Of a stretch of DNA of 64,000 nt, positions 1,748 through 17,800 are shown one piece after another. The stretch spans positions 72,983-136,982 of the forward strand of contig CAZAOT010000003.1 in assembly GCA_964487045.1 (NCBI GenBank), in the 5' to 3' direction. Position numbers and translations under genes: made by a program. The notes below the pieces were generated by a model, which was not told where the DNA came from, searched no databases, and was given only the letters and a program-made list of their open reading frames with translations. The stretch is from an uncultured Candidatus Saccharibacteria bacterium. Lineage in GTDB: Bacteria; Patescibacteriota; UBA1384; DTJR01. Positions within the stretch are counted from its first letter, which is position 1, and each line of letters begins with the position of its first letter.

Positions 1748-1787
1748 AATTCCCACAGCGATATTATTCTGATTGCGGAGGCCTACT

Positions 1788-2111
1788 ATGTCCGACCTTT
1801 CTGCTGTCGCTAGTCGTGTTGTTGGGGGTGTTCTTCTGACTCGGACTCCAGGCAATATCTTGCGCTGGGGGGCATTCCGGGTCGTAAATGCTACGACCAA
1901 CCCGGTTGGGTCGTTGCAGTTGGAGATTGAAGCAGTAGAGCCCCCTTTCAAGCAGTTTGAAGGGCGCTCGGTGGCGAAGGGGGTTTACGGCATGGGGCGG
2001 ATGTTCCGAAACCGAGGCAATCCGCCCAAGTATGACGGGAAGATAATTCGGCTGGAGGATCCTCTGCTGATCGCTGGCTATGATCCGGCGCCGATGATCT
2101 TTCTGATCTAG
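1788..2111 (+). CDS. hypothetical protein (G+C-rich gene)
   Basis: GGAGG sits 6 nt upstream of the ATG at 1788 (the track's start at 1773 is an in-frame extension). A strong hairpin terminator follows. The opposite-strand ORF 1764..2147 is judged a shadow. Confidence 0.5.
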   Translation: MSDLSAVASRVVGGVLLTRTPGNILRWGAFRVVNATTNPVGSLQLEIEAVEPPFKQFEGRSVAKGVYGMGRMFRNRGNPPKYDGKIIRLEDPLLIAGYDPAPMIFLI

Positions 2112-2135
2112 GGCAGCACCCGCTGACCTACAAAG

Positions 2136-2175
2136 GGGCATCCGCACTCACGTGTGGATGCCCCTTTCTCTTTAT
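2136..2175. terminator. Rho-independent terminator hairpin, possibly bidirectional
   Basis: GGGGCATCCGCAC-TCAC-GTGTGGATGCCCC followed by TTTCTCTTT on the + strand. It lies between convergent genes 1788..2111 (+) and 2186..2509 (-). Confidence 0.6.
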
Positions 2176-2185
2176 CTTCTAGTAT

Positions 2186-2509
2186 TTACTTCTTTGCGGC
2201 TTTTTTGACTTTGTCGTAGCCTTCTTCTAGCTCTGCCTGAATCTCTTTAGCTTGTTTAATGGTAATTTTCTTACCTTTTTCGTATGTTCCTACTACTTTC
2301 TTGACCGCGTCCTTGTAAGTGTCCTTGGTAAAATCTCCAGCTTTTTCAAGCTCAGCAGCGATTTTATCTTTCATTTCCTCTAGATAGTTAGCGATATCAG
2401 CTCGAGTCTCTTTGCCCGACTTTGGAGCAAACAAAATACCGGCGACTGCTCCGGCCAATGCGCCAACTGCTAGTCCTACTCCTACACCCTTCATCGTTTT
2501 CTTGTCCAT
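2186..2509 (-). CDS. YtxH-domain (DUF948-like) general stress protein
   Basis: N-terminal Gly/Ala-rich membrane helix (GVGVGLAVGALAGAVAGILFAPKSGKETR) followed by a charged coiled region, typical of the YtxH family. An extended -10 (TGcTATAAT) lies upstream. Confidence 0.75.
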   Translation of the reverse strand: MDKKTMKGVGVGLAVGALAGAVAGILFAPKSGKETRADIANYLEEMKDKIAAELEKAGDFTKDTYKDAVKKVVGTYEKGKKITIKQAKEIQAELEEGYDKVKKAAKK

Positions 2510-2583
2510 CGTTTCCTTTCGTTAATTGATTTGATTATAGCACAATAGTCAAAGGCCGCCTCGTTTATGAAAACTCGGCGGCC

Positions 2584-3657
2584 CTAGGATTTGCCCCAAT
2601 CGAGATCGGGGTCTTCGAGGTCGAATGATCGTCCGCGGATGAATGGATAGATGCGGGTGATCGAGAGGTTGAGGTGCTCAATGGTTTCACGGCTGAGGAT
2701 TGGCTTGGGCTTGTTGCGAAGTGCCCCGAACAACCGATGGACTTCATAGTCATTCATCTGCAGCAGCAGAAGCGTTGGATTGGCGTCTTGGAAATGCTCA
2801 GAAGACGAGATGAACTCATAACAGCGTTCAAGCTCGCTGGCAAACGGCTTGCGATTAGCGTTGAGCGGTACGTAACAGTTAGCGTACATCCAATCGCGTA
2901 GTCGCCAGAATTCCTTGGCTTCGTCGCTCTTAGAGAAACTGATCCGACCTACCGATGCCGATTCCCTTACCAGGGCATTTGCGAAGTTGAGCAGCCTCTC
3001 TTCCTTGGTTCGTCCGAAGCACATCGCTTGATGGTCGGCCTCTTCGAAGCCTGCTCCGATCCGCAAACCATCCTCGATGTCAGAGAACATGTAGATTTTG
3101 TCTACGATGTTCACCAGGCGAAACTCCTGAGGAAGCCATATGTACTTCTGCCGAGAAGTGCCTGAGTGGTGGTAGATTCCAAGCAGAGTTTCATAGGCCA
3201 GGTCGAGACCTTTGCCCGAGTGTTCAATTCTCTGTAGGTTCAGGCAGGCGATAATGCGGTGGTCGATCGTCAAACCACACAGCTTCGAGATTGTCTCCTC
3301 TCCAAAATGACCGAAGGGTGCGTGGCCGGTGTCATGCCCTAGCCCAACCGCTTCTGTCAAGTACTCATTTAGCTTGAGGAACCAGGCTATGAGCTTAGCG
3401 AGACTTGCAACCTCCATGATGTGAAGCAGTCGATCATTACTGGTCGATTCTTCTCTTCCGATGAAGACTTGGGTCGTTCCATGCTTGCGAAACAGGGACT
3501 CGCTATTGCCGACCCAGTAAGCATCCTCAATGAAGCCTCGCTTACCGGTTGGTCTCCTTCGCCCTCCCTCTTTCTTTGGTCGTCGTCCGCGACTCATCTC
3601 TTCTTGGAACCGTAGGTGCGCCAAGCACCCACGATATCTCTTGTCGAGGTTTAACAC
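2584..3657 (-). CDS. HD-domain phosphohydrolase, dGTP triphosphohydrolase-like
   Basis: HD motif region LGHDTGHAPFGHFGE. Arg/Lys-rich N-terminus. Visibly higher G+C than host genes. Hairpin (GGCCGCC...GGCGGCC) after the stop. The true start is uncertain. Confidence 0.7.
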   Translation of the reverse strand: MLNLDKRYRGCLAHLRFQEEMSRGRRPKKEGGRRRPTGKRGFIEDAYWVGNSESLFRKHGTTQVFIGREESTSNDRLLHIMEVASLAKLIAWFLKLNEYLTEAVGLGHDTGHAPFGHFGEETISKLCGLTIDHRIIACLNLQRIEHSGKGLDLAYETLLGIYHHSGTSRQKYIWLPQEFRLVNIVDKIYMFSDIEDGLRIGAGFEEADHQAMCFGRTKEERLLNFANALVRESASVGRISFSKSDEAKEFWRLRDWMYANCYVPLNANRKPFASELERCYEFISSSEHFQDANPTLLLLQMNDYEVHRLFGALRNKPKPILSRETIEHLNLSITRIYPFIRGRSFDLEDPDLDWGKS

Positions 3658-3728
3658 TAGGACGCACCTCCTTATCGTGGGCTGCCTAGGATTGTAGAGA
3701 ACTTATATTCTTAATTCAAGACCAAGTA

Positions 3729-4154
3729 TTATGAAGCGTCTTCTTTCGTTTCAACGTATCTGCCAAGATCATCACGATCTTCAGCCTTGGCGCCCTTTGG
3801 CAATAGTTTTACTGAAATTTTAAATTTTCGAGTCGAGCCGTCTTGATCGGTGATCATGTCAGTTTTCTTTTCATTATAAAAATCCATCAACTCGACCGAG
3901 AGAATATCTCTTAGGGTCTTTATCTCATCCAGGTTTTCCCTAATGTCTTCGGCGAGCTTGGCATTTCCTTCTTGATTAAAAATTGCATCTCTGACTTCTT
4001 TGCGTTTTTTTGCAGCCGATTTTGCCTCCTCGGCAATTTGAGTGTAGGAGGCATCATTTTCAAGGGCGGAGCGAAGTAGCTCTTTAGCTTTTTTATTTTC
4101 TTCTTCTAGTTTTTCAATAATTCCGATTCTTTCTTTGATGACCGATAAATCCAT
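3729..4154 (-). CDS. hypothetical coiled-coil protein
   Basis: GGAGCGGAGG lies 5 nt upstream of the ATG at 4154 (MDLSVIKE...). The track ORF extends to 4208 through the leader hairpin and is likely over-extended. Confidence 0.55.
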   Translation of the reverse strand: MDLSVIKERIGIIEKLEEENKKAKELLRSALENDASYTQIAEEAKSAAKKRKEVRDAIFNQEGNAKLAEDIRENLDEIKTLRDILSVELMDFYNEKKTDMITDQDGSTRKFKISVKLLPKGAKAEDRDDLGRYVETKEDAS

Positions 4155-4300
4155 AATTGCCTCCGCTCCTTGTCCAGCCCTTCGCGAAGGGCTGGACCGG
4201 AAGTCCACCTGGAGCGAAATCTATTTGCAGATTTCTTAAATTAAGAATACTGCAAGAGATTATGCGAAGGTGGACACGCTTATTTTTTACCTTAAGATTG
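4145..4300 (-). promoter_or_regulatory. Structured 5' leader: nested hairpins ending in a perfect 13-bp palindrome immediately 5' of the SD GGAGCGGAGG
   Basis: Minus-strand reading: GTGTCCACCT...(GAAATCT-gcaaat-AGATTTC)...AGGTGGAC-TTCCGG-TCCAGCCCTTCG/CGAAGGGCTGGA-caaGGAGCGGAGGcaattATG. Shares the CTTCCGG / GGAGCGGAGG frame with the leaders at 12424 and 21440. Confidence 0.45.
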
Positions 4301-4326
4301 TAACACTATTTTCTTTACGCCAAAAA

Positions 4327-4932
4327 TTATTTTTCTTTTTCTGGCTTTTCGTGTTCCTGATAGTCGATTGGTCTTGAAAGGTCGATTTCTTTCTTGTCTT
4401 CTTCGATCAACTTAATTACTTTTTCAATTAATTTTTTGGGATCATCGTCATAGACAATTTTGGGGTTTGGCCGACCGCATTCCTGAACTATCTCATTGAT
4501 TTCTTCGGCAATTCCCCCGGTACCAGTGAGGATTCCAATCGGTTTATGATCTTCAAAAGCAATCGTAAATTCGTTTAGAGTTCCGATTCTTCCACAGACC
4601 GTTATAACCGCATCAGCTGATCTGATCAGAAGAAGGTTTCTTCCTGAATAGCCAAAGCCGGTGTAAATAATGATATCGAACTCTTCAGTCGGTAATTTAT
4701 ATTTTTTAACATGTTCAAGCTCACTTGAAGCAGGTGAGATCCCGATCGAAAAACCTTCCTTAAGCGACTTACATCCCTTGGCAGCCCAGAGCGGTGCTCC
4801 AATTGTAGCTCCAGTTACCAGCACTCCTTCTTGACGAACGATCTCGCGACCTAGTTCTGTAGTCATCTCTTCAGCTTCCGGCGAGCAAGTTCCGGTTACT
4901 GCTGAACCTGATACACAAATTTTATACTTCAT
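4327..4932 (-). CDS. LOG-family / TIGR00725-type Rossmann-fold nucleotide-binding protein
   Basis: CGRIGTLNEF and TGTGGIAEE motifs characteristic of the LOG / DprA-like SLOG fold. Confidence 0.7.
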   Translation of the reverse strand: MKYKICVSGSAVTGTCSPEAEEMTTELGREIVRQEGVLVTGATIGAPLWAAKGCKSLKEGFSIGISPASSELEHVKKYKLPTEEFDIIIYTGFGYSGRNLLLIRSADAVITVCGRIGTLNEFTIAFEDHKPIGILTGTGGIAEEINEIVQECGRPNPKIVYDDDPKKLIEKVIKLIEEDKKEIDLSRPIDYQEHEKPEKEK

Positions 4933-6298
4933 TGTTCTCCTTTGATTCGCCCGAAAATTCGATCGATTCAGAATTCTTGGGGATATCTATTTCAATATTC
5001 ATCGTTTCTTTAATTTTGGCCATTAAAGCCTCTTTAGCTTCAGGCTCGCCGTGAACTAGAACGATTTTCTTAACATTTTTAATCTGCGAGACCCACTCGA
5101 CAAGTTTTGGTTGGTCAGCATGCGCGGAGTATGATTGTATCGGGATGATTTTTGCTTTGGAGAAAATTTCACTGCCTCTTATTTTAACTTCCTTATCTCC
5201 GTCAAGCAATCTTCGCCCAAGAGTGCCTTTTACCTGATAACCGACGATCAAAAGCGTTGTATTTTCCTTTGGCAAAAATGCTTTTTCGTGCCATTGAATT
5301 CTACCGCCATTCGACATTCCTGAGCCAGCAATGATGATTTTGGTCGATTCGTCCTTATCTAACTTCATTGAATCTTCGCTTTCTTCAATCATCTTTAGAC
5401 CTTTAAACTCGAAGAAGTCGTCGCCTGATTTTAAAAGGGCCGTAGCTTCGGCATTATAATACTGAGGATATTTAGCGTAAACTTCAGTCGCCTTAATCGC
5501 CAGCGGACTATCAAGATAAACAGGTATAAATGGAATGCTTCCGCCTTCAACTAGGCCGTTTAGTTCATATAGGATCTCTTGAGTTCTTTCCATTGCAAAT
5601 GATGGCATTAGAATAGTTCCATTTTCGCTAATCGAGTCTTTGATAATCTTCGTGAGCTGCTCTTTACGTTTTTCCATCGGTTCATGTTCTCGATCGCCAT
5701 AGGTCGATTCCATAATTACTAAGTCTGCTGATTCAATAAATTCAGTTTTCTTAAGCAGGGGAACTGGAGGATTGCCGAGATCACCCGAAAAAATAATTGT
5801 TTTTCCTTCTGCCTGGATTTTGACAATTGCTGATCCAAGAATATGACCCGCATCATAAAATTCGACTTCCACGCCTTCAATAGGTGAGAATTTCTCGTGA
5901 TAATTTTTTTCTTCAATTAAGGCAACTGTTTTAGCGACATCATCTAGATCATATAATGGTTGTTTATTAACGTACTCGGCTTCATTTTCCATTAAGTGGC
6001 ATGAGTCTTCGAGGAAAATTTTGGCAAATTCTTGAGTTGGCCCAGTAGCATAAATTTTTCCGCCAAATCCCATTTTTACCAGGTGTGGTGTTCGACCAAT
6101 GTGGTCAATGTGAGAGTGGGTCATGATCATCGCACCGACGTCTGCTGGGTTATAGGGGAACTCCTGCCAGTTTAAGACTGTTTCATCGTCCCCACCTTGA
6201 AACAGACCGCAGTCGATAATCAGTTTGCCAGCGCTAGTTTCAAGTAGATAATTTGATCCTGTCACACCTTCGGTAGCTCCACAGAATGTAATTTTCAT
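4922..6298 (-). CDS. MBL-fold metallo-hydrolase with beta-CASP RNA-metabolising domain (RNase J / CPSF-like)
   Basis: HSHIDHIG metallo-beta-lactamase motif near the N-terminus; length and C-terminal region fit beta-CASP ribonucleases. Confidence 0.8.
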   Translation of the reverse strand: MKITFCGATEGVTGSNYLLETSAGKLIIDCGLFQGGDDETVLNWQEFPYNPADVGAMIMTHSHIDHIGRTPHLVKMGFGGKIYATGPTQEFAKIFLEDSCHLMENEAEYVNKQPLYDLDDVAKTVALIEEKNYHEKFSPIEGVEVEFYDAGHILGSAIVKIQAEGKTIIFSGDLGNPPVPLLKKTEFIESADLVIMESTYGDREHEPMEKRKEQLTKIIKDSISENGTILMPSFAMERTQEILYELNGLVEGGSIPFIPVYLDSPLAIKATEVYAKYPQYYNAEATALLKSGDDFFEFKGLKMIEESEDSMKLDKDESTKIIIAGSGMSNGGRIQWHEKAFLPKENTTLLIVGYQVKGTLGRRLLDGDKEVKIRGSEIFSKAKIIPIQSYSAHADQPKLVEWVSQIKNVKKIVLVHGEPEAKEALMAKIKETMNIEIDIPKNSESIEFSGESKENNEV

Positions 6299-6990
6299 TC
6301 GTTGCTCCCTGCTTTATCTTTTTCTTCTTCCGTCTCAATCCCTATGATCTTGAGCGCCGAGCTTGTTCCAATTCGAGTGGCGCCTGCTTCAATCATACCC
6401 TTAGCCTCTTCGAATGTATGGATTCCGCCCGATGCTTTGACCTTTACCTCGTCCCCCACAGAAGCACGCATCGTCTTAATATCATCGATGGTCGATGGTC
6501 TTGGGCCGTAGCCAGTCGATGATTTCACAAATGCTGCTCCTGCTTTCTCGGCTCTCTTGCATGCTTCGGTTAGCTCTTCTTCTGTTAGAAAGCCAACTTC
6601 CATAATAACTTTGAGGCCAATTGGCTGAATCGCTGTTGCGATTTCCCTGATTTCTTCTTCGATAAAATCAAATTTCTTCTCTTTAATTGCTCCAATGTTA
6701 ACAACCATATCAATCTCGGTTGCGCCATCTTCTACAGCGAGCTTGGCTTCGGCTACTTTAATTTCGGTTTTTGAAATACCAAATGGAAAGCCAATTACAC
6801 TAATTACTTCAATATCGGCTCCTTCGAGATATTCTTTTGCGGCTGCTACGCGGTAGGTAGTGACGCAAACACTATGAAAACCATATTCCTTAGCTTCAGA
6901 GCAAAGCTTTTTGATGTCTTCATTTGTAGCATCTGCTTTGACACAAGTGTGGTCAATATAAGAAACGATATTTTCTTTTGTAATATTCAT
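6295..6990 (-). CDS. deoC: deoxyribose-phosphate aldolase
   Basis: N-terminal SYIDHT signature of DeoC; Lys-containing active-site region VKxSTGY; ~230 aa. Confidence 0.9.
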   Translation of the reverse strand: MNITKENIVSYIDHTCVKADATNEDIKKLCSEAKEYGFHSVCVTTYRVAAAKEYLEGADIEVISVIGFPFGISKTEIKVAEAKLAVEDGATEIDMVVNIGAIKEKKFDFIEEEIREIATAIQPIGLKVIMEVGFLTEEELTEACKRAEKAGAAFVKSSTGYGPRPSTIDDIKTMRASVGDEVKVKASGGIHTFEEAKGMIEAGATRIGTSSALKIIGIETEEEKDKAGSNE

Positions 6991-7130
6991 TAAATCTCCT
7001 CAAGTTTAGGTCCTTCGATTCCTGCCCCTCTACCTGACGCACTGCAATAACAGGACGGAGTCAGTTTTGCAGTAAGGAATGGTGTGGGGTGGTCAATATA
7101 TTTTCTAATTGATTGTTGATCTAGTTCCAT
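6990..7130 (-). other. uORF (46 aa) made of a diverged duplicate of the deoC N-terminus plus a conserved ~67-nt element; its stop overlaps the deoC ATG (TAATG)
   Basis: MELDQQSIRKYIDH-PTPFLTAKLTPSCYCSASGRGAGIEGPKLEEI*. The element (about 7024..7089) is ~89% identical to the copy at 13989..14055. Preceded by AGGAGG and a -10 TATAAT. Confidence 0.6.
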
Positions 7131-7245
7131 TTTCCCTCCTTATAACGATACAAATGCATTATAACATAATAACTTAAGTGTAAATGAAAAGAGAAAGGGC
7201 CGCCGTGTCGAATGACATGGCGGCCCTGGTTGTGCAGTGAGAGCT

Positions 7246-7968
7246 CTAGCTTGGTAGCTGAAGCGGAGTTAGATACTCAGCAGCTCTGGGAGTCGCCTTG
7301 ATGTCAGCTTTGTATCCATAGGTTCTCGCTGTCTCCAGATCCCAAGCGTAACTACCAGCGGGCTGAGTGGGCCTTGCGATGATTCGCGGGTCAAACCCTA
7401 TCTCATTTCCGGTCGTTGCCCAGTCGATATATGGGTTGATGTCAACTTCATACCGGAAAGGATCGGTCCGATCGCCGGCAGCAAGTGTAGCCAGCTCATC
7501 TAGACGATCGTCTGGCCAGTAAACCTTGCTTGTTGTCTGGCGGTTTTCGATCTCGACCCATTCATCGCCAACTGAGATGACTTCCGCTTCGTCGAAATGG
7601 ACAAATGCCTCTTGCGGAATCTCAATCTCCGGAAACATCAACTCCTCGGGACAGAGCTGTTCGAAGAAGGTCGTGCCAAGTAGCGTTATGCTGTCATCCC
7701 CACGTGGGATGACAAAGTAGGGCTGGTTTTCGTATGCGCCCCACTTCTGGCCAGGCCAGAGATAGCCAAGCGCCCAATCACCGTCTTTTTGCTGATAGAC
7801 GAGCCATGCCGCGCCGCTTCGAACTTCCCACGCTACTGAGCAAAAGTTGTGAAAAGCTGGTTCGGCTGGCCGCTCCGGTGATATCCTTAGCAGGAAAGAG
7901 CAGCACATGTCGGCTTTGTACATGAACGAGTCGATGATCCTTGGCCTAAACTGAAGCCGGTTTGGCAT
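7246..7968 (-). CDS. hypothetical protein (G+C-rich gene)
   Basis: AGGAGG sits 6 nt before the ATG at 7968 (MPNRLQFRPR...). A hairpin terminator GGGCCGCC..GGCGGCCC plus T-run lies at ~7196-7240. Confidence 0.55.
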   Translation of the reverse strand: MPNRLQFRPRIIDSFMYKADMCCSFLLRISPERPAEPAFHNFCSVAWEVRSGAAWLVYQQKDGDWALGYLWPGQKWGAYENQPYFVIPRGDDSITLLGTTFFEQLCPEELMFPEIEIPQEAFVHFDEAEVISVGDEWVEIENRQTTSKVYWPDDRLDELATLAAGDRTDPFRYEVDINPYIDWATTGNEIGFDPRIIARPTQPAGSYAWDLETARTYGYKADIKATPRAAEYLTPLQLPS

Positions 7969-8059
7969 GTCTGCCTCCTTTTGTTCTTTCAAATGCTACA
8001 GGGTTGCATAAAGCTTGCCACTTTGCAGATAGTAAACGGGTCTTCTTATCTAGTCAAGA

Positions 8060-8581
8060 TTATTTATAAATATAGATCTTCGGAGAAGTATTCTTTTTTA
8101 ATGGTTTGCGCCCTGTGAAATTAAAGGTTAGGGACACAACGGAAGCATTTCGCTTTAAATTTTTAAAAATAATAGGTTCAATCTTAGCTAAGAGTTTTTC
8201 AAGTAGATAGACATAAATCAAATCAGCTTTGTTTATTAGGTTTTCGTATTTTAATATATTGCCGTAATAAATTTTAATATTTTTGGTTTGATGGTGAAGC
8301 GCAACATTTAATTTGGCGAGTATGAAATAGAAAGGGGAGATTTCGATGCCGATACCTTTTGCTCCAAACTCTTTGGCAGCAATAATCAAGCTTCGCGCAT
8401 TGCCACAGCCGAGATCGATGACCACTTGTCCAGATTTTAAGTAGGCCATCTCAAAAGCCTTTTTAATAATTTTTTCTTTAGCGTAAACCGTCGGTGCACC
8501 TGAAAAGGCGGAGATTAACAGAGAAATTTGCCAAATAAGTGCGATCAAAGCTAGAGTGATAAATAATATAGAAATAGTCAT
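8060..8581 (-). CDS. class I SAM-dependent methyltransferase with N-terminal membrane anchor
   Basis: VIDLGCGNA (motif I) and typical Rossmann MTase layout. Confidence 0.8.
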   Translation of the reverse strand: MTISILFITLALIALIWQISLLISAFSGAPTVYAKEKIIKKAFEMAYLKSGQVVIDLGCGNARSLIIAAKEFGAKGIGIEISPFYFILAKLNVALHHQTKNIKIYYGNILKYENLINKADLIYVYLLEKLLAKIEPIIFKNLKRNASVVSLTFNFTGRKPLKKNTSPKIYIYK

Positions 8582-8617
8582 ATTTATCTAAGATTAACAT
8601 TTTGTTTCATAAATAAA

Positions 8618-8660
8618 AAAGAAAGCCCGGGCGCTCCACTGGGGAGGGCTCGGGCTTGAT
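8618..8660 (-). terminator. Rho-independent terminator for the G+C-rich cassette
   Basis: Minus strand: AAGCCCGAGCCCTCCCCAGTGGAGCGCCCGGGCTT followed by TCTTTTTTATTT. Confidence 0.6.
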
Positions 8661-8678
8661 GAGGCGTGGTAGCGGGTG

Positions 8679-8939
8679 CTACCGGAGGTTTCGGCGCTGA
8701 TCCGCGGTGGGGTTCTTGCCCACGTTTGAGTTGCCGACCGTCCGCTTTCGCACGATCCAGTCGGCAAGGAGCACGAAGGCGCTGATCGTGGCAGTGATGG
8801 CAGTCATGTAGAGCGTCGGCTTGCTCTTAAACATGATGCCAAAAGCGATGAAAAGCGGGGTAGTGGGGAAGAGGAAGAATTTGAACAATCTCCTCTTTCC
8901 CTTGGTGAGAAAAGACTTCGGCTTGAGTGACTTCATCAT
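8679..8939 (-). CDS. small membrane protein (G+C-rich cassette gene 3)
   Basis: GGGAGG RBS; one or two TM helices; 15 nt downstream of the preceding gene. Confidence 0.45.
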   Translation of the reverse strand: MMKSLKPKSFLTKGKRRLFKFFLFPTTPLFIAFGIMFKSKPTLYMTAITATISAFVLLADWIVRKRTVGNSNVGKNPTADQRRNLR

Positions 8940-8953
8940 AGTCCTCCCTGTTT

Positions 8954-9523
8954 CTAGCCCTTGCAGTCAGGGCATACGATCGTGATTTGGTTTCCTACGC
9001 CGGACCCTGTGTCCGGAATGAAGGGATCTCCACAGCGGAAGCAGTATCTGGGTTCACCTGCAACCAGCTTCTTGTCTGCATCCGAGCAGACCTTGCACTT
9101 GCGGGGATTCCAGAGGTTGCGTCTGCTTGGGGTATAAGCACCGCAATGTGGGCAGTAGAAGTGTGTCATTAGGCGTTGCCCAGTGCTCTTGGCGACAGGC
9201 GGGATCCAGCGCTTGATCGTGAAGCGCTGCTCCAAACCAGGGTGCAACTCTACCGTAGCGCCGTGGCCGCTGGTAGCTCGGACAGCAAAGCCGTTTTCCA
9301 GAAAGAGGTTCGCTATCTGCGCGAGTTCGCCCAGAGGTTCCTGGTTGAGGGCAGTTGCCAACTCAACATAGCATAGTTCTTCTGGAATGCTAGCGGCAGG
9401 CTGGTTGATTTCGACAGCGATACGAGCTTGCTGCTCCTCGGGTAGATTTGCCAATAAGGCAGTAATCCGCCCCTTGAGCGCGTCTGCTTCTTGGCTTGTA
9501 CTGGTGACTCGGGCGCGGATCAT
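8954..9523 (-). CDS. hypothetical protein with C-terminal double CxxC zinc ribbon (G+C-rich cassette gene 2)
   Basis: AGGGAG RBS; C-terminus CPHCG...CKVCS...CFRCG...CPDCKG. Confidence 0.55.
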   Translation of the reverse strand: MIRARVTSTSQEADALKGRITALLANLPEEQQARIAVEINQPAASIPEELCYVELATALNQEPLGELAQIANLFLENGFAVRATSGHGATVELHPGLEQRFTIKRWIPPVAKSTGQRLMTHFYCPHCGAYTPSRRNLWNPRKCKVCSDADKKLVAGEPRYCFRCGDPFIPDTGSGVGNQITIVCPDCKG

Positions 9524-9637
9524 GGTTGCTCCCTATCCTTTTTGGTATGTAAAGGTTCGAACGAACGTTTGATTATATTTGAATTACGTCCGAATGTCAA
9601 TAATTAAGTACAAGGGACGCCGGAGGGGCGTCCCTGA

Positions 9638-9919
9638 TCAGAGCCAGCAGTCGTGGCGAGTGATGATATTTCCGTCATCGCCAATACTGCCAACTTTGCA
9701 TGTTCTTCCGAGACGGCGAAAGCCTCTCATTGCAGGAGCAAATGCGGCTGCACCTAACAATATATAGAAGCTGGTACCAGATATGCCCGAGATGGTAGCG
9801 AAAAGCCAGAACATCTTGGGGTAGCAGATCGCTACAGTCGTTGAAGTGTACGCAACCCCTTTGAGAAGGGGAGCGAGAACGATCGGTCGTGAAACTAATG
9901 ACAGAATTCGACTGATCAT
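9638..9919 (-). CDS. small hydrophobic protein (G+C-rich cassette gene 1)
   Basis: AAGGAG sits 7 nt upstream of the ATG at 9919; a promoter-like TTGAAA-17-TAATTT lies upstream. Confidence 0.45.
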   Translation of the reverse strand: MISRILSLVSRPIVLAPLLKGVAYTSTTVAICYPKMFWLFATISGISGTSFYILLGAAAFAPAMRGFRRLGRTCKVGSIGDDGNIITRHDCWL

Positions 9920-10013: not shown

Positions 10014-10074
10014 AATAAGTGCCTGCCTGCCGGTAGGCAGGGCTTTCCGCCTGTTCTTTTCTGTTATAAAGTTT

Positions 10075-10149
10075 GGGCCTGTAGCTCAGTGGTAGAGCAG
10101 TTGCCTTTTAAGCAACGTGTCGTGGGTTCGATACCCACCAGGCCCTCCA
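10075..10149 (+). tRNA. tRNA-Lys (anticodon UUU), CCA encoded
   Basis: Cloverleaf: acceptor GGGCCTG/CAGGCCC, D-arm AGCTCAGTGGTAGAGC, anticodon stem GTTGC/GCAAC with loop CTTTTAA, T-arm GTGGGTTCGATACCCAC. Confidence 0.9.
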
Positions 10150-10156
10150 ATGAAAA

Positions 10157-10341: not shown

Positions 10342-10761
10342 ATGAGTAAGCGCATCCTGGTGGTTGATGATGAGCGCCACATCGTCCGTCTGGTTAAGCT
10401 CAACCTGGAACGCGCCGGCGGCTATGACGTCCTGACAGCGTACGACGGGATCGAGGCTCTGGGCAAAGTCAAGACCGAGAGCCCCGATATGGTGGTGCTC
10501 GACATCATGATGCCCCGGATGGACGGTTACGAAGTACTGCGTAACTTGCAAGCAGATCCCAGCTGCCAGAACATACCCGTGATCATGCTGACCGGCAAGG
10601 ACCAGGACGCCGACTTCTTCAAGGCCTGGGCCAGTGGGTTGAGGGCATATATGACAAAGCCCTTTGATCCCCAAGAATTGCTGACATTCATCCAACGGAT
10701 CTTCGAGGCCGATCAAATCGGGTATGGGGATGATACAGATGATTCGTGCTTTGAAGTGTAA
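10342..10761 (+). CDS. stand-alone response-regulator receiver (CheY-like) protein
   Basis: LVVDDE...DVLTAYDG...VVLDIMMPRMDG...MLTGK...KPF receiver signature. AAGAGG RBS. G+C-rich. The opposite-strand ORF 10198..10863 is a shadow. Confidence 0.85.
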   Translation: MSKRILVVDDERHIVRLVKLNLERAGGYDVLTAYDGIEALGKVKTESPDMVVLDIMMPRMDGYEVLRNLQADPSCQNIPVIMLTGKDQDADFFKAWASGLRAYMTKPFDPQELLTFIQRIFEADQIGYGDDTDDSCFEV

Positions 10762-10782
10762 TGTAGCTTGCCCCTCTCGATT

Positions 10783-10830
10783 CCCATGCCCGCATCTGCT
10801 CCGGAGGCTTTGCGGGCATTCTTTTTCTAA
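10783..10830 (+). terminator. Rho-independent terminator
   Basis: ATGCCCGCA-loop-TGCGGGCAT followed by TCTTTTTCT. Confidence 0.6.
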
Positions 10831-11003
10831 ATAGTTAACACCCATTTTATAAAGTCCAAACACAAATTTTTCAAAATTAGTTCAATCTGAGCCACAGGTG
10901 AAATTTCGCGTTCCACCCGCGAAATCCCCAGAAATAAAATTGCCCCGTTAGGGGCTATTTTAATTATTTAGAGATGTTTCCAGTCGTGTGATATATTAGT
11001 CCT

Positions 11004-11453: not shown

Positions 11454-11466
11454 TTAAAGGTGCAAC

Positions 11467-12216: not shown

Positions 12217-12423
12217 GACGACTCTGTTTTAAAAGTGAAGATTACGGAACTTTTTTTATAATAATTAGGATTGACTTTTTTGTAATAAACACAAGAATTG
12301 GGATATCATTAAGTTATTAGTAATAATAAAATATCCCAGTCACATTTCACCCTCTCGCAATATTCTTAATCTAAGAAATTTGCGAACCTGCCTACCGGCA
12401 GGCAAGTAGGGATCAAAGTGACG

Positions 12424-12477
12424 GGACTTCCGGAATTGCTTCCTGCCTTGGAGCGCAATTCTCGGAGCGGAGGAAAT
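12424..12477 (+). promoter_or_regulatory. Conserved 5' leader motif: GGGACTTCCGG - GAATTGC...GCAATTC hairpin - GGAGCGGAGG - ATG
   Basis: ~50 nt, near-identical to 21440..21487 (minus strand). The frame CTTCCGG / GGAGCGGAGG is also found at 4145..4200. Confidence 0.5.
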
Positions 12478-12975: not shown

Positions 12976-13773
12976 TTATCTTACAGCGAAATAGTAACCC
13001 TTGTAGGAAAAATAATTGCCTCGAGGGCTTTGGGCCGGCTTGGATAGGTCTAGTTTTCCGTAAATTTTAAATTTATTGGCAATGGCAAAATGATATTCGG
13101 TAAGTGAATCAACCGCTGAACCATTTTCAATGAAAGTTCCTCCAGTTAGGCCGAATAAAAACAATGCTTTGATTCCACTCTCAATGCAGATGTTGTCAGT
13201 GCTGATAAATTTATAGTCTTCGTCTAATAACATTTTATAAGTCTTTGAGTCAGTCTTTTGCGGGCCAAGTTTGCCGGGTCTGTCCCAGTAGGTAATTAAT
13301 TTTGTTGCATCTTCAACCTGCATTTTTATTTCTGGAGATTTTCCGAGATACTCAATTTTATCTTCAACAATTTTTATTCCATATTTGATCGCCGGATAAT
13401 AACAGAAAGTGTAAATAGGTTTTTTCTTGTCGTGGATAGTGACAACGACTGAAAACATTTTCTTTCCTTCGGCATACAACTTAGTTCCATCTATTGGGTC
13501 TAGAGTCAAAACATATTTAGACGTTTTTGCAAATAAATGGGCGCTTGGAGTTTCTTCCTCGCCAATAAGCTCACACTCCTTTAGATCGCTTTGAATTAGG
13601 CGACTGAGAATGAACTCCTGCACCGCAAGATCGGCGGAGGTAACTATATCAACTTCGCTAAAACCGGTATTATGTTTCTGATTGGAAGTAAAACTGCTAC
13701 GCATCTTTAATGCTAATTCTCCTGCCTTGATAAAGTCTTGTTCAAATTTTTGAACTTCTTCTATTATATTCAT
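12976..13773 (-). CDS. inositol monophosphatase / FBPase-family phosphatase
   Basis: LDPIDGT metal-binding motif and WDxxG-like region of the IMPase fold. Confidence 0.75.
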   Translation of the reverse strand: MNIIEEVQKFEQDFIKAGELALKMRSSFTSNQKHNTGFSEVDIVTSADLAVQEFILSRLIQSDLKECELIGEEETPSAHLFAKTSKYVLTLDPIDGTKLYAEGKKMFSVVVTIHDKKKPIYTFCYYPAIKYGIKIVEDKIEYLGKSPEIKMQVEDATKLITYWDRPGKLGPQKTDSKTYKMLLDEDYKFISTDNICIESGIKALFLFGLTGGTFIENGSAVDSLTEYHFAIANKFKIYGKLDLSKPAQSPRGNYFSYKGYYFAVR

Positions 13774-13816
13774 AAGCCAATCATATCTAATCTAGATTGA
13801 GAGTAAAGATTGAAGA

Positions 13817-13845
13817 TTGACTAATCGGCGAAAATAGTGTATATT
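13817..13845 (+). promoter_or_regulatory. sigma70-type promoter upstream of the typA uORF
   Basis: TTGACT - 17 nt - TATATT. Confidence 0.5.
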
Positions 13846-13953
13846 CTATTGGTTGTAAACAGCCAAAGAAGGCTTTTTGATCTATTTCGCATAGCGAAGA
13901 GATCAACCCTTCCATAGCTCTTTGAGCGAAGGAGGGTATTCTTTTTAAAAATT

Positions 13954-14070
13954 ATGATTCGAAACGTTGCGATTATTGCTCATGTAGACCCCACACCGCT
14001 CCTTACTGCAAAACGGATTCCATCCTGTTATTGCAGTGCGTCAGGTCGAGGGGCGAGAGATGACAAATAA
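13954..14070 (+). other. uORF (38 aa) made of a synonymous-recoded duplicate of the typA N-terminus plus a conserved ~67-nt element (13989..14055)
   Basis: MIRNVAIIAHVD-PTPLLTAKRIPSCYCSASGRGARDDK*. The first 12 codons give the same amino acids as typA codons 6-16, with 6 synonymous nucleotide differences. The element is the reverse complement of 7024..7089. Confidence 0.6.
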
Positions 14071-14081
14071 AATTTTGCCAA

Positions 14082-15902
14082 ATGGATATGAATAAAATTA
14101 GAAATGTAGCTATCATAGCTCATGTAGACCACGGAAAGACCACGCTTGTCGATGGTCTATTAAAGCAGTCCCATACTTTTCGTGACAACCAAGCCGAGAT
14201 GAATCAGACGCTCATTATGGACTCAAACGATCAGGAGAGAGAGCGCGGAATTACAATTTTGGCTAAAAATACCGCAGTAAATTACAAAGATACTAAAATT
14301 AATATTATTGATACTCCTGGCCACGCCGATTTCGGTGGGGAGGTGGAGCGAACGCTCAATATGGCAGATGGCGCGATCCTTGTAGTTGATGCTCAAGAAG
14401 GACCAATGCCTCAAACAAAGTTTGTTTTGAAAAAAGCGCTTGATTTAGGGCTAAAGATTATTGTAGTAATAAACAAAATTGATAAGAAAAATGCGCAAGT
14501 TGAAAGTGTTATAGAAAGAACTTCAGATCTATTTCTTGATTTAGCTTCTGATGAGTCACAGCTCGAATTTCCAATTTTGTTTTCAATTGCCAAGCAAGGT
14601 AAGGCTTGGAGCGAAATGCCACAGAATTTTGAAGAAGACGGTGATCTTTCGAAAATTTTTGAAGCAATTTTGCAGTATATTCCTGCGCCAAAAGTCGAAG
14701 AGGGTCCATTTCAGATGCTTGTATCGGCCTTGGATTGGGATAGCTATCAGGGAAAATACGCAATCGGAAAAATTTCAAGAGGAAAAGCGATGGCTGGTCT
14801 TCAGGTGAGTTTGGTAAATGAAGATGGCGTAAAAGAAAATACTCGAATTGATAAGATTTTTGTTAGCAGCGGTTTGGTCAAACAAGAAGTTAAGGAAGCC
14901 GTGTGTGGCGACATTGTTTCAATTACCGGAATTAAGAACGCTGGAATTGGCGAAACAATCGCTGATCAGACGAGTCCCGAGGCTCTGCCGGGCATAAGTA
15001 TAGAAGAGCCGACCCTTTCGATGGCAATTTCAGCCAATACTTCGCCATTTGCTGGCAAGGAAGGTAAGTTTGTTACTGGCCGACAAATTTTAGACAGAAT
15101 TAAAAAAGAACTAGAGACAAACGTTTCGCTAAAATTTAAACAGGGCGAGGAAGGCGAATATATTCTCTCTGGCCGAGGCGAACTTCACTTGTCCGTCTTT
15201 ATTGAAACTCTTCGTAGAGAAGGTTTTGAGCTTCAAGTTGGTAAGCCACAGGTTATTATCAAAGAGATTGATGGCATTAAGAGCGAACCACTTGAAGAAT
15301 TAACGGTTGATGTCGAAGATCAGTATGTAAATAACGTGATCGCCGAGGTTATAAGACGAAAAGGTGTTTTGCATCATCAGAACCCACTTCTTGATGGCAC
15401 GACCAGGCTTATTTTTGAAATTACAACGCGTGGAATGCTCGGTCTTAGAAGCCAACTAATGACTCTTTCGCGCGGAACAGCTGTCGCTAACTCGATATTT
15501 TTAAGATTTGAAAAAGTTATGAGCGAAATTCCAAGACTTCGAAACGGAGTTTTGATCGCTTCTGAAGATGGCAAGGCTGTAACTTATGGGCTTGATATAG
15601 CTCAGGGCCGAGGAATCACATTTATCGAGCCACAACAGCAAGTCTATAAAGGTATGATTATCGGGCTTAATTCAAAAGAGTCTGATATCGAAATCAATGT
15701 AGCCAAAGAGAAGCATTTGACCAATATTCGAGCTGCTTCTTCTGATATGACCACGGTTTTGACCCCAGCAACAATTTTGTCACTTGAACAATGTATTGAC
15801 TTTTTGGAAGATGACGAGCTTCTTGAGGTTACTCCAACGTCACTTCGACTTCGAAAGAAGATACTCGATCCAACGCAGCGAAATAGAGCTAGAATTCGCT
15901 AA
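14082..15902 (+). CDS. typA: translational GTPase TypA/BipA
   Basis: AHVDHGKTT, DTPGHADF and NKID G-motifs; EF-G-like domain order; ~600 aa. Confidence 0.95.
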   Translation: MDMNKIRNVAIIAHVDHGKTTLVDGLLKQSHTFRDNQAEMNQTLIMDSNDQERERGITILAKNTAVNYKDTKINIIDTPGHADFGGEVERTLNMADGAILVVDAQEGPMPQTKFVLKKALDLGLKIIVVINKIDKKNAQVESVIERTSDLFLDLASDESQLEFPILFSIAKQGKAWSEMPQNFEEDGDLSKIFEAILQYIPAPKVEEGPFQMLVSALDWDSYQGKYAIGKISRGKAMAGLQVSLVNEDGVKENTRIDKIFVSSGLVKQEVKEAVCGDIVSITGIKNAGIGETIADQTSPEALPGISIEEPTLSMAISANTSPFAGKEGKFVTGRQILDRIKKELETNVSLKFKQGEEGEYILSGRGELHLSVFIETLRREGFELQVGKPQVIIKEIDGIKSEPLEELTVDVEDQYVNNVIAEVIRRKGVLHHQNPLLDGTTRLIFEITTRGMLGLRSQLMTLSRGTAVANSIFLRFEKVMSEIPRLRNGVLIASEDGKAVTYGLDIAQGRGITFIEPQQQVYKGMIIGLNSKESDIEINVAKEKHLTNIRAASSDMTTVLTPATILSLEQCIDFLEDDELLEVTPTSLRLRKKILDPTQRNRARIR

Positions 15903-15917
15903 AACGCACTATCTCGA

Positions 15918-15946
15918 TTGACCTTTTTTGAAAAAATAGGTATAAT
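15918..15946 (+). promoter_or_regulatory. sigma70-type promoter driving the G+C-rich three-gene block
   Basis: TTGACC - 17 nt - TATAAT. Confidence 0.55.
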
Positions 15947-15988
15947 TTTCTATTGCTCTTTAACAAACAGGGAAAACGAAAGGAAGAC

Positions 15989-16219
15989 ATGCCGACGTCA
16001 ATCGAGACTAAGGCGAGGAATATCGATAGACACTTGCCGGAGATGATGTGCTTGGCGCACTCGTCCGGCTTGCCTTCGATCATCCTTCCGTTTGGCACTT
16101 TTGACCAGCCAACTCAGGAGAAGCTGCGTGACCTAGTGGCCGAGTACGCCAAAGGCAAGGGCCACAAGACGCGCAAGTTCTTGCATCAGACGCGCCTCTA
16201 TCTCGAGGTGAGTATCTAA
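15989..16219 (+). CDS. hypothetical small protein (G+C-rich)
   Basis: AAGGAAG RBS before the ATG at 15989. Confidence 0.4.
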   Translation: MPTSIETKARNIDRHLPEMMCLAHSSGLPSIILPFGTFDQPTQEKLRDLVAEYAKGKGHKTRKFLHQTRLYLEVSI

Positions 16220-16226
16220 GGAGGGC

Positions 16227-16448
16227 ATGATGCCCAGGATAACCAGAACTGATTCGGCCGGCAATGCTTTGGAGATCGACGGCGCCAAGGTCGTCGCCGG
16301 GCCTTACGGCTCTCGGGCTGAGGTTGTTGTTGCGCACGCAGAGGTTGGGATGGAGTTGGCTTGTCGTTCGGGACGAATTTCAAGCGGGGTCTTTATTGAG
16401 CTCAATGGAAAGCACTATGCTGTCGAGGTCGCGACACAATTGATGTAA
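16227..16448 (+). CDS. hypothetical small protein (G+C-rich)
   Basis: AGGAGG RBS; 73 aa. Confidence 0.4.
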   Translation: MMPRITRTDSAGNALEIDGAKVVAGPYGSRAEVVVAHAEVGMELACRSGRISSGVFIELNGKHYAVEVATQLM

Positions 16449-16473
16449 GTTGGCCAAAATAGGGAGGCAGATT

Positions 16474-17739
16474 GTGGACAAAGAAGCGATCCAAGGCGCC
16501 CGCAGGGCGCTTCTGCTCAAGAAGCTTGAAGTAGCATCAACGACCAAGGAATGCACCCTTGCGTTCCAGGGTCTCAAGCTCTACAGAGATGACCTTTCGA
16601 TTGTCGCCACTCGTAAGAGAGCGATTGAGCTCGCAGCTTCGGCAGGCGACATGGATGAGGTTCGTCGCTTTCCGTATGATGTGGGTATCTTCTCTCTGGG
16701 AGATCAGGCTTCCGAGTTCTTTCGTAAGGCCATGCTGCTTTGCAGGCCTGAAGAAGTATACGACTTCACAGGCAACTTCGGCTATTACGCCGATGAAGTT
16801 GTTAGCTTCCTTGTCGAGGGGCTTACCGATCCGCTCAAGCTGACTCGACTAGCGATGCGACTCGGAGCGGAGGGTCTGCTTGAGCGCGGACAGGAAGTGA
16901 TCGCTCGGGCTGCTGAACTGGCTGCAAGCTGGGAAGTGTGCGGTTATGTCGGGACGATACACTATGCGCCGCTTCCGACAGGGTTTCTGACCATGGCCGT
17001 CCTTCTCGCTGAGGGGCAGAAGGGTTACGATGCTCCTCTCGAAGTTTGTGGGTGGATGAAGGCTTCGCTCAACGACCCGCTCGAATTCAGACAAGCAGCG
17101 GCTGTTGCCGAGCTGCTTGATGCGCCAAACAAGCGTATCAGGCGGGTAGCCGGAGAGCGGATCAGGCAGGCTTACCAGGAGAAACTGAGCGGCCAAGATG
17201 GCGACTTCTATATCCAAAGCGCCTGGAACGTCGTTTGCGATGCCCGCGATGCGCTTCCGGAACTGGCTGCAGAGCTGACCGCTGATCTCGTGGTGCGTCT
17301 GACAGATGCGGTACCAGCCTGTCAGGACTTTTCGGAGGCAAAGTCGCATCTTGAAGTCGCTTCCGCAATGGAGGACTTCGGGATCGATGGAGTCTACTGG
17401 CCGGCAGCCATGCGTGCGATGGAGCTGGCAGAGGGCTGTGATGATATCCTGGCGTTGGTGCGCCTTGGCATTCATGTCCAGGAGCTCACCGAGGCTGTCC
17501 TGGTAATGGCTGCAACCGAAGATGATATCATTGCAGTCATACAGCGCAACCCGAACTTCTCTGGTGAGTGGACGTTGCCTCTTTGCGAGCGGATCTTCGA
17601 CTATCGGCGCCAGAGGGCGCAGACGATCGAGGACTTCATGATTCTGCATCACCTGACCAAGGACCCGGTCAAACTGGCCGAGGTCGAGGATCGCATCCAG
17701 GAGCTCATCGCTCCATACCATACCGAGCCTGAGGAGTAA
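16474..17739 (+). CDS. hypothetical all-alpha protein (G+C-rich)
   Basis: GTG start at 16474, 6 nt after AGGGAGG (the track used TTG at 16450). Terminator follows. The opposite-strand ORF 16849..17754 is a shadow. Confidence 0.55.
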   Translation: MDKEAIQGARRALLLKKLEVASTTKECTLAFQGLKLYRDDLSIVATRKRAIELAASAGDMDEVRRFPYDVGIFSLGDQASEFFRKAMLLCRPEEVYDFTGNFGYYADEVVSFLVEGLTDPLKLTRLAMRLGAEGLLERGQEVIARAAELAASWEVCGYVGTIHYAPLPTGFLTMAVLLAEGQKGYDAPLEVCGWMKASLNDPLEFRQAAAVAELLDAPNKRIRRVAGERIRQAYQEKLSGQDGDFYIQSAWNVVCDARDALPELAAELTADLVVRLTDAVPACQDFSEAKSHLEVASAMEDFGIDGVYWPAAMRAMELAEGCDDILALVRLGIHVQELTEAVLVMAATEDDIIAVIQRNPNFSGEWTLPLCERIFDYRRQRAQTIEDFMILHHLTKDPVKLAEVEDRIQELIAPYHTEPEE

Positions 17740-17765
17740 CTTCCCCTGGTTCATGGCTCTACAAC

Positions 17766-17800
17766 GGCTCCCGGCCTAGTGCTTGGGAGCCGTTTTCTTT
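17766..17800 (+). terminator. Rho-independent terminator
   Basis: GGCTCCC-ggcctagtgctt-GGGAGCC followed by GTTTTCTTT. Confidence 0.65.

Follow-up and report, generated by a model that had tools for sequence, protein, structure and literature searches.

GC-rich gene cassettes in fixed slots of an AT-rich Patescibacteria chromosome: a long-lived compositional excess with no sign of decay

Why should an AT-rich bacterial chromosome of the reduced kind carry, between its housekeeping genes, short blocks of much higher G+C content, and for how long has it done so? The question is raised by a window of 64,000 nucleotides (positions 72,983 to 136,982 of NCBI contig CAZAOT010000003.1, which is 232,796 bp long), the whole stretch of DNA that was analysed, whose coordinates are used throughout. 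A preliminary description, made by eye from the letters, had listed seven such blocks and proposed that they were acquired repeatedly as small expression units, possibly from one shared donor, for instance the cell on which an episymbiont lives, or else that they reflect bin contamination or chimerism. The analysis establishes that the GC-rich blocks are genuine chromosomal, protein-coding and clade-restricted genes in fixed slots of a conserved AT-rich backbone, and that these cassettes carry a long-lived G+C excess. The genes around them are housekeeping genes such as deoC, typA, dnaJ/dnaK, yebC and comEC.

Overall G+C in the window is 40.9%, with sharp rises to 0.50-0.66 at all the listed blocks in a 400-base sliding profile. 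The 50 background open reading frames (ORFs) have a G+C content of 0.394 (standard deviation 0.028, range 0.34-0.47) and a third-codon-position G+C (GC3) of 0.348 (standard deviation 0.037, maximum 0.47), while the 13 island ORFs of the seven blocks lie at 0.50-0.66 (z = 3.6-9.6) and 0.50-0.83 (z = 4.1-12.8), respectively, the two sets having zero overlap in composition (Mann-Whitney U = 650 = 13x50, p = 3.6e-8). Computation thus gives anything but a uniform composition (GC3 of 0.50-0.83 against 0.35±0.04), and both the sliding profile and the ORF-by-ORF values bear out, for every one of the seven blocks, the earlier statement that they are GC-richer than core genes. Codon usage, named in the preliminary description as a further check, and amino-acid usage also set the islands apart from the background, as seen in the shares of ATC (0.71 vs 0.25), AAG (0.79 vs 0.35), AAC (0.68 vs 0.25) and TTC (0.67 vs 0.24) and in the content of arginine (7.9% vs 3.4%) and lysine (4.0% vs 8.4%). 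Among themselves the islands are alike, with GC3 mostly of 0.57-0.79 and similar codon preferences. They amount to 6,558 coding bases, or 19% of the first 34 kb, and the composition profile revealed no islands from 34 to 64 kb. An ORF of 1085 aa in that part (56110-59367, plus strand) has local G+C peaks of up to 0.53; its G+C at second codon positions is 0.55 and its GC3 0.29, and the peak is an effect of amino-acid composition, not an island of the kind discussed here.

The borders of some blocks are redrawn by these data. The block at 1750-3660 does contain two GC-rich genes, A1 at 1788-2111 (plus strand) and A2 at 2584-3657 (minus strand), but a YtxH gene of normal composition (2186-2509) stands between them. 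The blocks at 7246-7968 and 8679-9919 are both GC-rich but make up one ancestral block, island B, divided by an AT-rich methyltransferase gene that a related species (locus L088, below) lacks at this place. The methyltransferase gene, which adjoins DeoC in a contig from another relative, was inserted or rearranged separately and deviates in composition in the opposite direction. The features, in order, are these.

1722-1750, plus strand: promoter-like site of A1, TTGATG-17-TAAAAT with a TG extension.
1788-2111, plus strand: island A1, a 107-aa orphan (G+C 0.56, GC3 0.63), starting with the ATG at 1788 behind a GAGGAGG Shine-Dalgarno (SD) site.
2132-2167, either strand: hairpin terminator with a 16-bp stem, common to the convergent genes A1 and YtxH.
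2186-2509: YtxH gene of normal composition, between A1 and A2.
2584-3657, minus strand: island A2, a predicted 357-aa HD-domain, dGTPase-like protein (G+C 0.52, GC3 0.61).
7246-7968, minus strand: island B1, a 240-aa orphan (G+C 0.53).
8060-8581, minus strand: S-adenosylmethionine (SAM)-methyltransferase gene, AT-rich (G+C 0.34), dividing island B and not an island gene.
8679-8936, minus strand: island B2, an 85-aa membrane protein (GC3 0.79).
8954-9523, minus strand: island B2, a 189-aa protein, zinc-ribbon-like, with four CxxC pairs (G+C 0.56).
9572-9600, minus strand: perfect-consensus promoter-like site in island B, TTGACA-17-TATAAT, upstream of the 189-aa gene.
9638-9919, minus strand: island B2, a 93-aa membrane protein (G+C 0.50).
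10075-10149, plus strand: tRNA-Lys(UUU), between island B and the CheY gene.
10342-10761, plus strand: stand-alone CheY-like receiver of 139 aa (G+C 0.55, GC3 0.71).
15918-15946, plus strand: promoter-like site of the island C operon, TTGACC-17-TATAAT, in AT-rich DNA just 3' of the typA stop.
15989-16219, plus strand: island C gene 1, a 76-aa orphan (GC3 0.75).
16230-16448, plus strand: island C gene 2, a 72-aa orphan.
16474-17739, plus strand: island C gene 3, a 421-aa all-alpha helical-repeat protein by prediction (G+C 0.57).
17763-17794, plus strand: island C hairpin terminator with a 12-bp stem, read from the sequence.
20477-20851, plus strand: island D, a 124-aa orphan (G+C 0.54) in a variable slot.
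32462-32911, minus strand: island E1, a 149-aa Gly/Cys/Tyr-rich protein with a signal-peptide-like N-terminus (G+C 0.66, GC3 0.83).
32989-33348, minus strand: island E2, a 119-aa orphan (G+C 0.51).

The tRNA-Lys is the sole RNA gene detected in the window. For A1, the exact 107-aa product was found in public records. At E1, most public gene calls choose an antisense, Ala/Arg/Val-rich ORF of 173 aa (32423-32944, plus strand), which is probably a miscall, the 149-aa ORF being the likelier gene because of its SD site, signal-peptide-like start, terminator and GC3 of 0.83. Directly adjoining island E are ComEC-type DNA-uptake genes (30138-32394, plus strand), with a Competence domain and a metallo-beta-lactamase domain, called as two overlapping ORFs.

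Judged by sequence motifs, the blocks are what they had been described to be, compositionally foreign-looking and autonomous expression units, each with an SD site, a terminator and, in AT-rich DNA, a sigma-70-type promoter of its own or of its operon. With start codons picked by the same rule in both sets, the mean energy of the duplex with the anti-SD sequence is -10.0 kcal/mol for islands and -5.5 kcal/mol for the background (p = 3e-5), in agreement with the strong SD sites claimed before. Island genes terminate in GC-rich hairpins followed by T runs, and promoter-like sites lie in the AT-rich DNA immediately outside the GC-rich coding sequence, including consensus sites at 9600-9572 (TTGACA-17-TATAAT) and 15918-15946 (TTGACC-17-TATAAT), so that the terminators and AT-rich promoters of the preliminary description are present as well.

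The proteins are mostly orphans, and the only domains recognised among them are HD (PF01966, 5e-7) and Response_reg (2e-29). As many of the AT-rich neighbour genes are also without a domain, this lack is not specific to islands. The HD protein carries the HD catalytic motif as GHDxGHxPFGH, which does not vary in the alignment, and has a match to the PADLOC dGTPase profile (2.6e-21), features that it shares with dGTPases and other HD-type deoxynucleoside triphosphate triphosphohydrolases, anti-phage dGTPases included. It differs from these in that its residues 31-179 cover positions 34-175 of the 395 in the profile, the N-terminal 40% only, in that the HD-associated C-terminal PF13286, on record only for the distant matches P0012-P0014, was not detected in it, and in that its family, with proteins of about 360 aa that come for the most part from low-GC contigs, is a distinct one. 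It thus appears dGTPase-like in its N-terminal catalytic part only and, because PF13286 was undetected, is not filed as a dGTPase. The CheY-like protein is a receiver by its match to PF00072 (2e-29, positions 1-110 of 111); its neighbours are the tRNA-Lys and a NUDIX hydrolase gene, no cognate kinase or chemotaxis partner was found nearby, and no kinase domain was seen in the ORFs scanned. The 85-aa and 93-aa proteins are hydrophobic. An AlphaFold2 model of the 421-aa protein is an all-alpha repeat of 24 helices (predicted local distance difference test, pLDDT, 78.6), with generic TPR/HEAT-like fold matches only, at a template-modelling (TM) score of 0.3 or below, and a single-sequence model of the 240-aa protein gave no usable fold (pLDDT 42). 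Such evidence makes it very improbable that the GC-rich DNA is non-coding, as structured RNA or otherwise, with ORFs that arise in it by chance. Long ORFs do run on both strands of GC-rich DNA, for instance at 1764-2147 and 32340-32968, but tRNA was the only Rfam family matched, none being assigned to the blocks, orthologue pairs are under purifying selection, with ratios of non-synonymous to synonymous divergence (dN/dS) of 0.07-0.12, HD and receiver domains are recognised, the 421-aa family has a confident helical model, and SD sites stand at the proposed starts. The non-coding reading is contradicted for most genes, being conceivable only for A1, D, E1 and E2.

Could the blocks have been joined to this contig by assembly or binning, as GC-rich pieces from another organism? 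The sharp compositional contrast, and nothing else, would suggest so. Independent support comes from Logan assemblies of sequencing runs SRR11845623-26 and SRR29243437, one run thus being numbered far from the others. At island C, two Logan contigs equal window positions 14399-19805 and 14396-18866 at 100% and span both borders; at island D, contigs match 17764-23119 (100%), 18069-21418 (99.97%, one mismatch) and 19799-22670 (100%); and a further contig equals 10086-12374 at 100%, covering the right-hand border of CheY together with the NUDIX gene. For island E, contigs from four runs hold E1 and E2 between yebC and comEC as in the window, a comparison of flanking genes and not an alignment. 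The arrangement at A2 and B is supported by synteny in other species, assembled by others, and island borders coincide with gene boundaries, promoters and terminators. Breakpoints at the island edges, by which chimerism had been expected to show itself, are contradicted at all the covered borders by the matching contigs. Chimerism and contamination are therefore refuted wherever independent assemblies or synteny cover an island, which they do except at the outer border of A1 and at the left-hand border of CheY, and across the window the chance that the blocks are artefacts is close to nil.

The organism is a Berkelbacteria-like member of the Candidate Phyla Radiation (CPR; Patescibacteria), its nearest TypA being that of a Candidatus Berkelbacteria metagenome-assembled genome (MAG) at 81% identity and the next ones those of other Patescibacteria. 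The typA neighbourhood was not conserved among 80 GTDB species compared and was therefore unusable for scoring the presence or absence of islands, though the typA loci did serve to place the lineage. Closer relatives surfaced via the island proteins themselves, as homologous loci fetched from Logan, ENA or JGI assemblies and numbered with an L; the lineages concerned are those of ENA ERZ1426829 (with the 264-kb contig below), Logan ERR14964768, JGI 3300044673/3300044712 and Ga0194052. In three to four of them, the HD gene, the 240/189/93-aa block and the 76/72/421-aa operon have homologues in the same slots. Locus L088 (Logan ERR14964768) is collinear with window 2186-9919, its order being YtxH, HD, 138-aa, SLOG, beta-CASP, DeoC, 241-aa, 81-aa, 190-aa and 93-aa. 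Its backbone proteins are 77-93% identical to those of the window and its island proteins 40-76% (HD 75%, 240-aa 56%, 189-aa 76%, 93-aa 57%), and its island orthologues have a G+C content of 0.55-0.64 (0.56 for the 240-aa gene) and a GC3 of 0.60-0.82 against a backbone G+C of 0.43-0.50; the positional orthologue of the 85-aa protein has 81 aa and a GC3 of 0.82. A 264-kb ENA contig, compared in part (loci L085-87 and L172-173), has the same backbone and the HD gene in place at 74% identity, and between an inositol-phosphatase region and a LysM gene it bears an operon for proteins of 74, 173 and 440 aa, the largest being 42% identical to the 421-aa protein. G+C in this operon is 0.52-0.54 and drops to 0.29-0.43 in LysM. 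The C-terminus of the 76-aa protein is 42% identical to its counterpart in L172, and A1 has a positional counterpart of 108 aa with a GC-rich tail in the ENA contig. In the JGI loci L174/L175, typA (88-92% identical, GC3 0.30) is followed by genes for 97, 429 and 117 aa and then by a 395-aa homologue of the window's 399-aa gene (77% identical, G+C 0.40); the 429-aa protein is 39% identical to the 421-aa one, its gene having a G+C content of 0.60 and a GC3 of 0.79, and the 117-aa gene has a G+C content of 0.55. Another JGI locus, L097, has an HD orthologue at 80% identity and a G+C content of 0.52 beside a flank of 0.38, which brings the syntenic, GC-rich orthologues of HD to 3-4 lineages, at 72-80% identity.

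Islands A2, B and C are thus present and syntenic among relatives, D is variable, and CheY and A1 were judged on ENA gene lengths together with the C-terminal fragment of A1. Neither LysM nor a homologue of island D was found in L174/L175, the gap after the 399-aa homologue in L174 being low in G+C, and in another species the slot of island D is taken by a 197-aa gene. Slot contents change accordingly, by presence or absence of island D, by extra genes in relatives and by the inserted methyltransferase gene, though insertion boundaries could not be defined by comparing filled with empty slots, the DNA being too diverged to align. Isolated GC-rich genes (G+C 0.53-0.60 in contexts of 0.39-0.46) were also seen in more distant relatives and in an unrelated contig carrying HD, at L114 1780-2628, L001 8940-9761 and 21053-21484, L002 7849-9828, L007 5294-6586 and L174 2103-2456; two of them encode B12/radical-SAM enzymes and the others are orphans. 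Such genes seem to be general in this group of genomes.

How old, then, are the cassettes? Between the window and L088, core synonymous sites are saturated, with a proportion of synonymous differences (pS) of 0.75-0.85 and a same-codon frequency at identical residues of 0.430, where permutation gives a null value of 0.404 (z = 2); between the window and L174, synonymous divergence (dS) comes to about 2.1 in typA and about 2.9 in the 399-aa gene. Core synonymous sites are thus at or near saturation, and because the islands are syntenic in species so far apart, the cassettes appear to predate those splits, which are deep at the synonymous level. The idea that acquisition was recent or peculiar to this genome is not supported, since these relatives have A2, B and C in syntenic positions and with a high G+C content.

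A GC3 that lags behind G+C at first codon positions (GC1) is the expected mark of amelioration under way. Pooled values of GC1/GC2/GC3, where GC2 stands for second positions, are 59/43/64 for islands and 52/36/37 for the backbone in the window, 59/44/67 and 53/36/47 in L088, 60/41/57 and 54/30/45 in the ENA species, and 62/40/74 and 45/35/39 in L174. In none of the four lineages does island GC3 lag behind GC1, so that there is no sign of decay towards the host value. Under a neutral two-state model with a backbone-like mutation bias, a calculation made for this analysis, one substitution per synonymous site per lineage would leave about 6-16% of an initial GC3 excess, or 0.1 at most, and the excess observed is +0.2 to +0.45. 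Rates of protein change differ among the cassettes, and most cassette proteins are fast-evolving. The HD and 189-aa proteins evolve like slow backbone genes (non-synonymous divergence, dN, about 0.18-0.19 and dN/dS of 0.12 and 0.07, respectively, vs L088), and HD retains more synonymous similarity than the backbone in the same comparison (z = 5.6). The 421-aa protein has a dN of about 0.6, against 0.09-0.16 for its neighbours, with no synonymous signal left between the window and L174. The three members of its family are roughly equidistant at 39-43% identity, which could reflect very fast evolution or replacement by old alleles.

Where the cassettes came from was sought in homologues, mobile elements and insertion marks. 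When 1.84 billion representative proteins were scanned in full with HMMER, the 421-aa family had three members, the window protein and two homologues (42% and 39%), both syntenic and in related species, so that the family is confined to this clade; a word-indexed search gave no homologues. For HD, homologues at 34-39% identity come from low-GC contigs, in which they are at or slightly above background composition, and neighbour-joining places the HD clade of the window beside these on a long branch, with homologues from GC-rich genomes as the outgroup. The HD homologue in L114 has a G+C content of 0.60 in a context of 0.46. No matches were obtained in viral contigs with the 421-aa, 240-aa and HD proteins, in phage and plasmid collections with ten island proteins (tblastn), or in JGI metagenomes with an alignment of the 189-aa protein; besides the 421-aa and HD proteins, eleven island proteins were tested, in all or in part, against these sets. 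PHROGs gave one family of unknown function for the HD protein and no other match, and PADLOC the dGTPase profile for the same protein, with no other defence system recognised. The repeat comparison of the window found no flanking repeats, attC-like sites or shared repeat after the ORFs around the islands, no integrase or transposase domain was found among the ORFs scanned, and no tRNA insertion signature was seen, only island B and CheY adjoining tRNA-Lys, where the tRNA end is not repeated.

These results bear on the proposal of several recent, independent captures from one GC-richer donor, perhaps the cell that hosts an episymbiont, which is improbable. The mutual likeness of the islands in GC3 and codon preferences, the presence of ComEC uptake genes and the absence of an island D homologue from its slot in one relative would fit it, but three of the seven blocks, A2, B and C, contradict it by being syntenic and GC-rich in relatives, the 421-aa protein is without homologues outside the clade in 1.84e9 representatives, the nearest HD relatives lie in low-GC contigs, and phages, plasmids, viral and JGI contigs are without matches. 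The affiliation of the best matches, another of the checks named before, points to no GC-rich lineage for the 421-aa or HD proteins, the closest homologues being in-clade for the former and in low-GC contigs for the latter, and the eleven others went unmatched. Nor is acquisition as such unusual for a reduced genome, since gene transfer and genomic islands, the transfers mostly within the phylum, are already documented in Patescibacteria (PMC12455944).

The reading preferred here, held with about even confidence, is an old foreign origin at about 55% G+C followed by maintenance of that composition, the blocks being moron-like accessory cassettes. The lineage would have gained the cassettes, at about 55% G+C and from a foreign source, ahead of the radiation of the clade, probably by DNA uptake, for which the ComEC genes beside island E are a plausible route, and by recombination at backbone flanks. 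A continuing force would since have kept them near 55% G+C, and this may be repeated replacement out of a GC-rich pool not yet sampled, GC-biased gene conversion (gBGC) at recombination hot spots, or selection for GC-rich, strongly expressed mRNAs. Several points weigh against an old foreign origin with maintenance. A foreign origin is read from composition alone, as the search for a donor, an integrase, flanking repeats and attachment sites gave nothing, and the nearest HD homologues, at background composition in low-GC contigs, fit a native gene as well as a transferred one. Polarised synonymous changes in HD, AT-to-GC vs GC-to-AT, number 15 vs 25 over four taxa and 5 vs 4 in the window lineage, where a neutral expectation calculated for this analysis is about 1 to 2.8; the window counts speak for an absence of decay, but the polarity rests on 9-40 sites at a divergence near saturation, where parsimony is unreliable. 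The relatives are known from short contigs only, and the codon-position regressions for judging amelioration are taken as they are said to have been given by Lawrence and Ochman in 1997. Finally, a GC3 excess of +0.2 to +0.45 is far above any recombination-associated effect in bacteria known to us.

The island genes may, alternatively, be native and never acquired, a gene-specific force, whether gBGC at hot spots or selection on mRNA or DNA, having raised them to about 55% G+C and holding them there. This is a possibility of clearly lower standing than old acquisition, though a good deal of the evidence agrees with it: the families are confined to the clade, the sister group of the HD clade comes from low-GC contigs and not from GC-rich genomes, the excess has lasted in 3-4 lineages at or near synonymous saturation with a GC3 that does not lag, polarised changes are balanced in the window lineage, the consistently strong SD sites, promoters and terminators suggest high expression, and the HD homologue in L114 is itself GC-rich in a poorer context. 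Against it stand dnaK and typA, which are presumed to be highly expressed and are not GC-rich, the isolated GC-rich radical-SAM genes of distant relatives, which look like ordinary transfers, and the turnover of slots, as expected of transferred DNA; nor do we know of a precedent in bacteria for so large a within-genome offset kept in situ. If the native reading held, a lineage-specific class of genes would sit, by a gene-specific force (unusually strong gBGC at hot spots, or selection for GC-rich mRNAs of high expression) and with no foreign origin, at a separate equilibrium (about 55% G+C, GC3 of 0.6-0.8) in a genome of 40%, a claim likewise to be taken as tentative, which if true would amount to a two-compartment genome composition in a minimal bacterium.

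Among known systems, the cassettes are closest in kind to compositional islets. Transferred genes cluster in a small share of the chromosomal intervals, or hot spots, diversified by rapid gene turnover (Oliveira et al. 2017, PMC5635113), and with such islets and hot spots (PMC5635113, PMC12455944) the cassettes share an atypical composition, an accessory or orphan content, fixed intervals in the core, turnover and the lack of recognisable mobile-element genes. They differ in being very small (0.3-2.7 kb), GC-richer instead of AT-richer and conserved across species, with no sign of amelioration and no identifiable donor. Acquired genes are usually AT-richer than the host, though very AT-rich genomes have been seen to hold GC-richer ones as well (PMC2671203), and the putative alien genes of Lawsonia intracellularis described there likewise are GC-richer genes in an AT-rich reduced genome, the reverse of the usual bias; the inference was drawn there from one genome, whereas here orthologous cassettes in several species show the excess to be long-lived. 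For bacteria, Lassalle et al. (2015, PMC4450053) proposed a GC enrichment associated with recombination, through gBGC, which would share a raised GC3 in particular genes without foreign origin and also predicts amino-acid shifts and faster protein change. Integron cassettes consist of a promoterless ORF with attC beside an intI gene, whereas the cassettes here have their own promoters, and no shared 3' repeat or integrase was found. The effects attributed to gBGC by Lassalle and colleagues reportedly fall far below the GC3 excess seen here. Phage morons, as described by Hendrix and colleagues, are single genes or mini-operons of deviant composition with their own promoter and terminator, inserted between genes; the cassettes share this autonomous anatomy and deviant composition but lie outside any prophage, with no phage genes nearby. 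The kind is thus a known one, and the unusual feature is the missing decay; of a set of such cassettes conserved across species with undecayed composition we know of no description.

Short repeats were also seen in the window. An element of 67 nt is present in two copies, 91% identical (arms at 7024-7090 and 13988-14054) and the only ones in the window, within the 5' ends of deoC (6990-7130, minus strand) and typA (13954-14070, plus strand) and in the orientation of each gene, where it encodes PTP[LF]LTAK..PSCYCSASGRGA. Upstream of each copy there is a strong SD site and a decapitated copy of the gene's own N-terminus, MELDQQSIRKYIDH in deoC and MIRNVAIIAHVD in typA, which runs in frame into the element, and the resulting mini-ORF ends where the gene has its second, complete start or immediately ahead of it, stop and start overlapping as TAATG in deoC. 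The two N-terminal copies in typA differ at six synonymous sites only, and the upstream copy in deoC is nearer to the DeoC N-terminus of a relative than the current one is. Both insertions lie 3' of GACC(AC) in a conserved (V/I)DH motif. Rfam had no match to the element, and neither viral contigs nor the other loci fetched contained a copy; it resembles a small insertion element by which the target gene is restored. An element of about 50 nt with internal dyad symmetry, ending in GGAGCGGAGG, occurs upstream of two membrane-protein genes (12422-12473 and 21440-21490), a palindromic TTCTTAAT-TAAGAA motif, which looks like an operator, upstream of two other genes (4224-4258 and 12352-12386), and an 18-nt perfect palindrome, TGCCTGCCGGTAGGCAGG, at 10024-10041 and 12387-12404, the short repeats thus being found at the 5' leaders of unrelated genes. 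Cumulative GC skew has its minimum, and gene orientation switches, at about 6800-7200. A replication origin near 7,000 as the cause is unsupported, there being no DnaA-box cluster, and dnaA was not seen in the ORFs examined.

The detection of transfer by composition assumes that atypical genes are recent and decay to the host value, and the genes described here are old, syntenic and undecayed. If amelioration fails in these genomes, screens of CPR MAGs for islands and contamination could wrongly drop such genes, and if a local force sustains their G+C content, GC-biased conversion or selection on G+C would have in them a bacterial case that is tractable. A role of the cassettes in host interaction or defence is plausible because of their strong expression signals, the secreted or membrane proteins among them and their fast evolution, and they are candidates for clade-specific functions of organisms with almost no characterised biology.

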